Assembly: GCA_023380475.1 (NCBI GenBank)
Contig: JAMCRD010000003.1
Coordinates: 28,397 to 92,396 of the forward strand
Direction: 5' to 3'
From: Patescibacteria group bacterium
GTDB taxonomy: Bacteria; Patescibacteriota; Minisyncoccia; UBA6257; Colwellbacteraceae
DNA length: 64,000 nucleotides
The stretch's first letter is position 1, and every line of letters starts with the position of its first letter. The notes under the pieces are model-generated. The model saw only the letters and a program-made list of their open reading frames with translations. It ran no database searches and was not told the DNA's origin. The position numbers and the translations under genes were made by a program. This document shows positions 20,781-22,196 of the stretch, piece by piece.

Positions 20781-22196
20781 ATGTTTAACGTAACACACAC
20801 ACAGAGAGAGAGAGAGAGAGAGAGACGAATCCCGTTCCTAAGATGGGACAGGTTTAACAAGCGGTTCTTGTACGTAAACACTCTTATTTTAGTAGGGATA
20901 TTGTTAGTTCTTGTAACTTCCGCCTTCACCGGTCCTTCTTCTTCGCCTCCCAACGGCAATGCTCCAGGAGTGTTGGGAGTGACCAATGGCGGAACAGGGG
21001 CTACTACCACTGCGGCTGCCAGAAGCGCTTTGGGAGCAGCAGCTTCAGGGGCTAATTCGGATATAACATCACTTACGGGGTTAACTACTCTATTACCTGT
21101 ATCTGAAGGAGGTACTGGTCTCTCTTCAGTAGGATCATCTGGCAACGTTCTTACCTCCAACGGAACGAGCTGGGTGAGCCAAGCGGTATCGGGCGGTTCT
21201 TCAGAAATTTTCGGAGACGGTTCTGATGGGAGTGTCACTATTTCTAGTAACACATCTCTTACAAGAGATATGTTCTACAGCGGTCTCACGATAAACAGCG
21301 GCATAATATTAAGCACTAACGGCTACAGAATCTTTGTGAGTGGAACCTTAACCAATAATGGAACTGTTGATGCATCGGGAGGTAATGGGGGCAACGCGTC
21401 TGGTCAAAGTGGAGGCAGCGGCGGAGTTGCAGCGTACTCGGGTGGCTCCTTACCAGCCGCCATCGCTGGAGCAACTGGTGGTGGAGGGGGGAGCGGAACT
21501 GGTGGTTCTGGTTGCTACAGCGGCTCAGCTGGTAGCAGCGCGAGTAGCCAAACCAAATCTATAGGCGTTGCTGGTAGTAATGGCGGTGGTGGAGGAAGTG
21601 GTTCTAGCGGAGGAGGTGGCGGCGGCTGCGGCTCTTTACCGGGCGGTGGTGGAGGAAGTGGTGGTACTCTGTCTGGTACAGTCTTTAATCTCCCAAGAAG
21701 TGCTATGGCAGCATATTTCTTATTTGACACTCAGCCATCAGTAACACCTCTATCGGGAAGTGCTGGAAGCGGTGGGGGTGGAGGTGGAGGTGGAGGCAAT
21801 TATGGGACTAATTCCACTTTCAGCGGCTATGGTGGAGGTGGGGGTGGAGGTGGAGGTACTGGTGGAGTTATAGAGATATTCACCAAGTCGTTGGTAAACA
21901 ACGGGGTTATAAGTGCAAATGGCGGCAATGGCGGAAATGGATCTGCGGGTGGCAATGCAATATCTGGTAGTAACGCTGGTTGTGGAGGTGGAGGTGGGGG
22001 TGGTGCGAGCGGAAGCGGTGGAGTAATAATATTGATTTACAGCAGTAGCTCCGGTTCAGGTACAATCACCGCAGCAGGAGGCACTAGTGGCACTGGAGGG
22101 TCTGGTTCCGTAAACTGTACCAATGGATACAACGGAGGAGATGGAGCATCTGGGATTGTAGGTAATAATGGCAAAATCATCACAATAAGTAGTTAA
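20781..22196 (+). CDS. Glycine-rich membrane-anchored surface protein with tail-fibre-like N-terminal repeats
   Basis: ATG 20781 lies 13 nt after the SIMPL stop. TM anchor LYVNTLILVGILLVLV, GGTGATTTAAARSALGAA and GGTGLSS repeats, then long poly-Gly blocks. Confidence 0.75.
   Translation: MFNVTHTQRERERERRIPFLRWDRFNKRFLYVNTLILVGILLVLVTSAFTGPSSSPPNGNAPGVLGVTNGGTGATTTAAARSALGAAASGANSDITSLTGLTTLLPVSEGGTGLSSVGSSGNVLTSNGTSWVSQAVSGGSSEIFGDGSDGSVTISSNTSLTRDMFYSGLTINSGIILSTNGYRIFVSGTLTNNGTVDASGGNGGNASGQSGGSGGVAAYSGGSLPAAIAGATGGGGGSGTGGSGCYSGSAGSSASSQTKSIGVAGSNGGGGGSGSSGGGGGGCGSLPGGGGGSGGTLSGTVFNLPRSAMAAYFLFDTQPSVTPLSGSAGSGGGGGGGGGNYGTNSTFSGYGGGGGGGGGTGGVIEIFTKSLVNNGVISANGGNGGNGSAGGNAISGSNAGCGGGGGGGASGSGGVIILIYSSSSGSGTITAAGGTSGTGGSGSVNCTNGYNGGDGASGIVGNNGKIITISS
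20793..20824 (+). repeat. Dinucleotide microsatellite (AC)5(AG)11 inside codons 5-15 of the glycine-rich gene
   Basis: Direct reading: acacacacac agagagagagagagagagagag. Translated as THTQRERERER. Confidence 0.98.

Follow-up and report, generated by a model that had tools for sequence, protein, structure and literature searches.

The stretch of DNA analysed here, referred to as the window, comprises 64,000 nucleotides of a Patescibacteria genome (contig JAMCRD010000003.1 of assembly GCA_023380475.1) with a G+C content of 47%, and carries on its forward strand a gene at 20781..22196 encoding a 471-residue, glycine-rich protein of predicted surface location, with the frame as assembled corresponding to the ON state discussed below. 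The open reading frame (ORF) begins ATG TTT AAC GTA and closes with a TAA codon at 22194-22196, its first four codons being followed directly by the compound microsatellite (AC)5(AG)11, a single A at 20825, and the sequence CGAATC. The (AC)5 half occupies 20793..20802 and the (AG)11 half 20803..20824, with the latter giving rise to the run of (RE)n in the cytoplasmic tail and numbering 12 units in the Logan assembly of SRR10244963. Together the two halves form 32 perfect bases (20793-20824) spanning codons 5-15 of the ORF from ATG 20781, precisely as the initial annotation of this DNA had described, with Tandem Repeats Finder assigning 11.5 copies and 100% matches to the AG half.

The earlier description of the tract as the sole such repeat in the 64 kb is also borne out, with no other dinucleotide run of at least 6 units and no homopolymer of at least 8 found within the window, and the second-longest dinucleotide run in the 64 kb scanned being (TA)5. 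A 14-nt (AG)7 probe, allowing at most one mismatch, is expected to match 0.02 times per dinucleotide-preserving shuffle, compared with seven overlapping matches in the window, all of which fall at the 20793-20824 site. The presence of the tract in three other independent assemblies rules out an assembly artefact as its source. A perfect simple sequence repeat (SSR), above the instability threshold and inside the 5′ coding region, is a hallmark of contingency loci. The microsatellite in the 5′ portion of this surface-fibre gene is genuine and highly non-random, with a length that is polymorphic and a unit that shifts the frame.

A Shine-Dalgarno-like motif, GAGGG (20770..20774, forward strand), lies 6 nt 5′ of ATG 20781. 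Gene callers place the start at the in-frame ATG 20754, giving a 480-residue product in GCA_023476555.1, and this codon is without a Shine-Dalgarno-like motif; the choice between ATG 20754 and ATG 20781 leaves the frame argument unaffected. Just 5′ of the tract, the two alternative forward frames are closed by TAA codons at 20786-20788 (frame +2) and 20791-20793 (frame +1), and no start codon occurs between these stops and the end of the tract, so that only ATG 20781 (or 20754) reads into the repeat. Rescue of an OFF allele from an alternative upstream start was considered and rejected, as TAA closes both frames.

The gene was rebuilt in silico with 4-6 AC and 6-16 AG units, with unit totals of 13, 16, and 19 giving full-length proteins of 469-473 residues that differ only in Arg-Glu dipeptides, and all totals outside this class giving products of 16-28 residues that end before the anchor. 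Gain of one unit leads to a TAA at 20839..20841 and a 20-residue product ending in DESRS, and loss of one unit leads to a TAA at 20855..20857 and a 24-residue product ending in ETNPVPKMGQV, with both shifted frames terminating 5-11 codons past the tract and 5′ of the hydrophobic anchor. A unit length that is not a multiple of three, combined with an early stop in both shifted frames, is again the arrangement of a contingency locus. The initial annotation had noted that the frame opening at ATG 20843 runs into TAA after 4 codons, and that no in-frame ATG precedes the anchor; both statements are correct, with the next in-frame ATG found at codon 164. It overlooked an in-frame TTG at 20868..20870 (codon 30), positioned at the start of the transmembrane helix with no Shine-Dalgarno sequence 5′ of it, which is the only conceivable point of restart for an OFF allele before codon 164 besides TTG 20901. 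Neither TTG has a convincing ribosome-binding site, and a start at either would lose the basic tail of the protein.

Exact matches to the proteins of the adjacent SIMPL and DHH genes were used to recover the locus elsewhere, and it is present in three assemblies besides the window: the NCBI metagenome-assembled genome (MAG) GCA_023476555.1 (contig JAMCXC010000001.1), and the Logan assemblies of SRR10278331 and SRR10244963. Both the window and GCA_023476555.1 carry (AC)5(AG)11 in a contig that is continuous through the tract. The allele of SRR10278331 is likewise (AG)11, with a 26.7-kb upstream contig ending after (AC)5(AG)10 and a 6.3-kb downstream contig beginning C(AC)3(AG)11ACGAATC. In SRR10244963 the tract reads (AC)5(AG)12, with the 1.4-kb contig L003 ending ...GTA(AC)5(AG)12A, the 6.9-kb contig L007 beginning C(AC)2(AG)12ACGAATC, and the two sharing exactly 30 nt, equal to k-1 for the Logan k of 31. 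This allele is one unit longer than that of the window and is out of frame, and outside the tract the two contigs are identical to the window at 1,402/1,402 and 6,850/6,850 positions respectively (8.25 kb, zero substitutions). Tabulation of repeat units, as proposed in the initial annotation, is positive at the level of assemblies, with (AG)12 in SRR10244963 set against (AG)11 in the three others, and tract length differing between otherwise identical genomes, as at contingency loci. Given that the repeat has changed whilst its flanks show no substitutions in 8.25 kb, length change appears to be much faster than point mutation.

Each of the four Logan contigs has one of its ends within the tract, even though no 31-mer is repeated there. 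Between ...(AG)12A and ...(AG)12AC, the break suggests a competing ...(AG)12AG k-mer, and we infer that the breaks are graph branches created by reads of more than one length, an effect that stutter in the polymerase chain reaction (PCR) during library preparation could also produce. Exact look-ups found no record of the 471-residue form, with the 480-residue form found in two contigs, including that of GCA_023476555.1, and a 466-residue contig-start form found only in SRR10278331. A cluster look-up returned two further NCBI accessions, only for the SIMPL neighbour (MCL4405175.1 and MCL5224030.1), and an exact scan of JGI metagenomes for the upstream flank GATTGAGATGTTTAACGTAACAC gave 0 matches.

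The 471-residue protein is matched by no Pfam or NCBIfam model. Its N-terminal tail is basic (9 Lys + Arg vs 4 Asp + Glu), and precedes a hydrophobic segment at residues 29-49, FLYVNTLILVGILLVLVTSAF (20865..20927, forward strand, Kyte-Doolittle maximum 2.3), which is followed by FTGPSSSPP, with a conserved FTGPxxxPP motif and the same architecture found in the related proteins P0121 and P0137. The linker that follows (20955..21197, forward strand) carries GGTGATT..., SDITSLTGL, and GNVLTSNGTSW motifs as in phage tail-fibre-like proteins, with proteins carrying the gp53-like domain PF21882 among the matches. The C-terminal domain, comprising residues ~140-471 (21198..22193, forward strand), is a glycine-rich beta-helix, modelled by AlphaFold2 with a predicted local distance difference test (pLDDT) score of ~97, and in this model its fold resembles those of adhesins and of viral, collagen-like fibre tips. 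A Foldseek search against the PDB gave nothing significant, the best match being the receptor-binding domain of phage PP01 gp38 (E 5.7). The basic tail and single transmembrane helix, together with the tail-fibre-like linker and the beta-helix, point to a topology exposed at the cell surface or interface, as is usual for the products of contingency loci, and the product is predicted to be a cell-surface fibre with a binding tip.

The beta-helix domain belongs to a large uncharacterised family, with 765 matches among the 8,000 candidates scored, and is joined in these proteins to N-termini comprising coiled coils, collagen repeats, tail-fibre modules, pectate-lyase-like beta-helices, and transmembrane anchors. 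The family also extends to an uncultured phage and to collagen-like proteins of giant viruses. A scan of viral contigs for related loci returned a single weak locus, and the divergence within an alignment of 63 relatives was too high for a pattern search.

No orthologue bearing the leader was found in a collection of 5.8 billion proteins, with searches using the whole protein and the N-terminal 152 residues never covering MFNVTHTQRERERERRIPFLRW. The best N-terminal relative, P0121, is 63% identical across the anchor and linker, and begins MLNKFNRKFLYVN, which aligns to window residues ~21-33 (...RWDRFNKRFLYVN). The gene encoding P0121, on metagenomic contig L014 (ERZ27293347 k141_533612), has its own AT-rich promoter-like region and a GAAGG ribosome-binding site, and carries no repeat. 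As the start of P0121 matches window codon ~21 and is without the repeat, the 21-codon, repeat-bearing leader is a lineage-specific addition. A total of 78 metagenomic loci encoding the C-terminal domain were fetched, and a scan for SSRs covering 85 non-self loci (365 kb) found no dinucleotide run of at least 8 units, with a few short SSRs present, none of which opens a gene of the family.

Gene order agrees with a lineage-specific addition, the order PBP2-GalT-DedA-TPI-x-PGK being kept in a Colwellbacteria genome with a GtrA-like gene in the slot, and the genome of the nearest available species (L009, PGK 78% identity) carries unrelated surface-protein genes 5′ of PGK. A search anchored on PGK found no true orthologue among species-representative genomes. 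The initial annotation had proposed a comparison with orthologues, and had listed absence of any repeat from them among the outcomes speaking against a switch; the repeat is indeed missing in relatives, however this does not bear on switching. The tract is evidently young and unusual, and the repeat-bearing leader recently acquired.

The neighbours of the gene are chromosomal housekeeping genes, encoding ribosomal proteins, SecY, MurA, MreB/C, PBP2, TPI, SIMPL, PGK, RNase H, BipA, and trigger factor, and identification of the gene as a phage tail fibre or prophage gene was rejected on the basis of this context. No match was returned by tblastn from 50,697 records of cultured phages, and comparison with PHROG yielded nothing stronger than a weak match, to a family of unknown function. 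A terminator-like hairpin, CCCCTTCTTCGGAGGGG (22307..22323, forward strand), followed by a T-run, lies between the gene and the PGK start at ATG 22347, and a TATAAT is also found 5′ of this ATG (region 22239-22347). With the hairpin and TATAAT positioned ahead of it, ATG 22347 is most likely the start of PGK (353 residues, as in the MAG), rather than GTG 22239, which opens the longest ORF. A promoter-like match at 20634-20662 scores no better than shuffles and was discarded, as was an RNA element at the tract, with an Rfam scan at gathering thresholds giving only one tRNA (41510-41581) in the window.

A second glycine-rich protein of 1015 residues is encoded nearby (24874-27921), and was rejected as a paralogue (BLASTP E 0.28). 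GCA_023476555.1 matches the window without difference as far as 27638, beyond which it shows 43 substitutions in ~300 nt (27639-27934), followed by a transposase of the rve family, and contig L007 of SRR10244963 ends at 27645, the same point at which GCA_023476555.1 diverges; on these sequences, there appear to be two co-existing haplotypes of the 3′ end of the 1015-residue surface-protein gene. In L014, positions 2-370 correspond to window 27550-27921 and positions 496-1026 to window 20840-21200, placing a homologue of the C-terminus of the 1015-residue protein (...VNNVIVNWSP, compared with ...VNSITVNWSP in the window, each ending at a stop codon) directly 5′ of the anchor and linker homologue. 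From this arrangement, the 1015-residue protein and the repeat-bearing protein seem to be linked, and the WSP motif at both C-termini might act in sorting. The P0121 gene stops at TAG 1024-1026 (L014 1020-1100), inside an apparent tail-collar/MdpB-type C-terminal domain with coding-looking sequence beyond, for which pseudogenisation, assembly error, and recoding are possible explanations. Elsewhere, one region of the window brings together two MreB paralogues (9062-10069 and 13662-14708), MreC (14711-15385), and a PBP2-type transpeptidase (15784-17640), a full rod-shape module in a Patescibacteria bacterium of small genome. A cluster of small ORFs at 56700-59010 contains A-rich tandem repeats at 57026-57080 (28 bp x2), 57254-57306, and 58343-58383.

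Taken together, the one-unit polymorphism and the frame logic support the ON/OFF switch for which the initial annotation had put the tract forward as a candidate, and the tract is probably a classical SSR translational contingency locus, in which slipped-strand mispairing switches a surface-fibre gene. In such a switch, the hypermutable compound SSR, which follows the start codon and precedes the membrane anchor, would gain or lose 2-nt units through mispairing at replication. Only totals of 13, 16, or 19 units would be in frame from ATG 20781, making one class in three ON, whilst at all other totals translation would stop ahead of the anchor and leave no anchored protein. Length changes would be frequent and reversible, with OFF alleles giving no protein, and a population would consist of a mix of cells displaying and not displaying the fibre. 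The benefit may lie in escape from phage or host recognition, or in modulated attachment to host cells.

A number of points weigh against such a switch. The locus stands alone, with no further SSR in the 64 kb hinting at a wider set of phase-variable genes, and a second strain-level branch 7 kb downstream in both samples means that (AG)11 and (AG)12 could be fixed strain differences. The evidence comes from two read sets and two MAGs, all as assemblies, and the 34-nt tract of SRR10244963 exceeds the k of 31, so that linkage of (AC)5 to (AG)12 there depends on one contig, L003, and the 30-nt overlap. Furthermore, the contig breaks could stem from PCR or sequencing stutter as opposed to biological heterogeneity, and OFF alleles could show leaky expression through the in-frame TTG 20868.

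Several of these points recur in other explanations of the locus. It is conceivable, if unlikely, that the tract is a mutational hot spot that arose by slippage in a dispensable, lineage-specific leader and has no adaptive switching role, the (AG)12 allele being a pseudogenising null that became fixed in one of the co-existing strains. The gene occupies a variable slot between TPI and PGK, in which related genomes carry other genes, each sample contains at least two haplotypes of this region (second branch at 27639), and there is a single SSR in the 64 kb. However, 11 perfect units greatly exceed the threshold for instability in dinucleotide repeats, and either decay or continued slipping would be expected of such a run, and with zero substitutions in the 8.25-kb flank, length change outpaces point mutation. 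Additionally, the breaks seen in the contigs of either sample may reflect several co-existing lengths, and the tract lies exactly where a frameshift is most effective, with the other frames closed in advance. A purely technical origin, with the tract stable at (AG)11, and (AG)12 and the breaks arising from PCR stutter, sequencing errors, and simplification of the k=31 graph, is improbable. Dinucleotide runs of this length do stutter in PCR-amplified libraries, the tract together with its anchors is longer than the k of 31, and (AG)12 is found in one sample only, but stutter usually contracts repeats rather than adding units. The SRR10244963 contigs from both sides carry (AG)12, with neither having an (AG)11-specific junction, which argues that (AG)12 is the path kept by the assembler and not a minor error branch.

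The remaining alternatives concern what the tract encodes. Were TTG 20868 the real start, the tract would lie in a short upstream ORF or leader that tunes translational coupling or mRNA stability, and this TTG is in frame, P0121 starts near the equivalent of codon ~21, and the leader ORF of OFF alleles ends 11-27 nt 5′ of TTG 20868. This possibility is nonetheless rather remote, as no Shine-Dalgarno sequence precedes 20868, whilst ATG 20781 has GAGGG at an ideal distance, all basic residues ahead of the transmembrane helix would be lost, and the frame is continuous from ATG 20781 in three of the four assemblies. The least probable of the explanations considered is selection at the level of the protein for a variable-length (Arg-Glu)n cytoplasmic tail, tolerating changes of three units only and involving no ON/OFF switching. 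Every frame of (AG)n does encode RE or ER, and in-frame alleles differ by RE dipeptides alone, however selection on the peptide need not keep identical codons (AGA/GAG only), the variant observed differs by one unit and not three, and homologues are without such a tail.

If the locus does switch, stochastic surface variation would be used by uncultivated episymbionts too, and the fibre protein, marked out as a target of fluctuating selection, would be an obvious protein to consider as a host-attachment factor or phage receptor. In practical terms, the tract breaks short-read assemblies, and intact or truncated gene calls are to be expected according to the sample. Such a switch is not surprising in principle, with its relevance lying in how episymbiotic bacteria of the Candidate Phyla Radiation (CPR) manage their surfaces.

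Phase variation through microsatellite slippage is textbook for Helicobacter, Neisseria, Haemophilus, Campylobacter, and Mycoplasma, with many SSR contingency loci per genome in the host-adapted pathogens among Haemophilus, Neisseria, and Campylobacter. The opa genes of Neisseria carry CTCTT pentamer repeats in the region coding for the signal peptide. The present locus is like opa and other SSR contingency loci in the position of the SSR, after the start codon and ahead of the sequence for the mature surface protein, and in the translational phase variation that would follow, but differs in its 2-nt unit, compared with units of 5, 4, or 1 nt, and in being the one locus seen here, compared with many per genome. 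Closest in repeat type are the H. pylori genes oipA/hopH, sabA, sabB, babB, and hopZ, which are like the present one in having a CT/AG dinucleotide tract (~6-11 units in H. pylori) in the first codons, there the signal-sequence region, where one-unit slippage truncates a surface protein. For H. pylori oipA, CT repeats in the 5′ region are described as a cause of frameshifts (PMC10564699). In contrast, the H. pylori outer-membrane proteins are beta-barrels of a diderm pathogen, whereas the product here is an anchored beta-helix fibre of an environmental Patescibacteria bacterium, with a compound (AC)5(AG)11 tract and putative switching. Membership of the Helicobacter Hop/Hor family was rejected, with no Pfam or NCBIfam match and a beta-helix in place of a barrel, and the comparison with Helicobacter drawn in the initial annotation holds as a mechanistic analogy only and fails as homology. 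Similarly, only ~100-130 of 330 residues align with the beta-helix adhesins (the two-partner-secretion (TPS) domains of HMW1, EtpA, and FHA, and autotransporter passengers), and with no TPS or autotransporter signature found in the protein, and neither a TPS secretion domain nor a C-terminal translocator barrel, membership of these adhesin families was also rejected.

The nearest published case found in the CPR is a hypervariable surface protein of Gracilibacteria (BD1-5), which contains an in-frame array of 9-nt (PTD) repeats with synonymous variation (PMC6851277). Both loci belong to CPR bacteria and encode surface proteins with a single transmembrane segment, and both contain a repeat that fragments assemblies of genomes near-identical outside it, however the PTD locus has no 5′ frameshifting microsatellite and no ON/OFF logic (PMC6851277). 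The full-text literature searched holds no report of a phase-variable locus in the CPR, with Patescibacteria and phase variation occurring together only in an unrelated context. We tentatively suggest, with somewhat less confidence than in the switch itself, that, among simple-sequence contingency loci, the present one may be the first documented from the CPR, and that an ultra-small, probably episymbiotic bacterium would here switch an anchored fibre whose tip domain is common with phage and giant-virus fibres, hedging its bets between host attachment and escape from phage or host defence, through a leader recently grafted onto an older gene. The mechanism itself is known from the systems above; the novelty lies in the lineage and the gene family, and in a leader that was evidently acquired recently.

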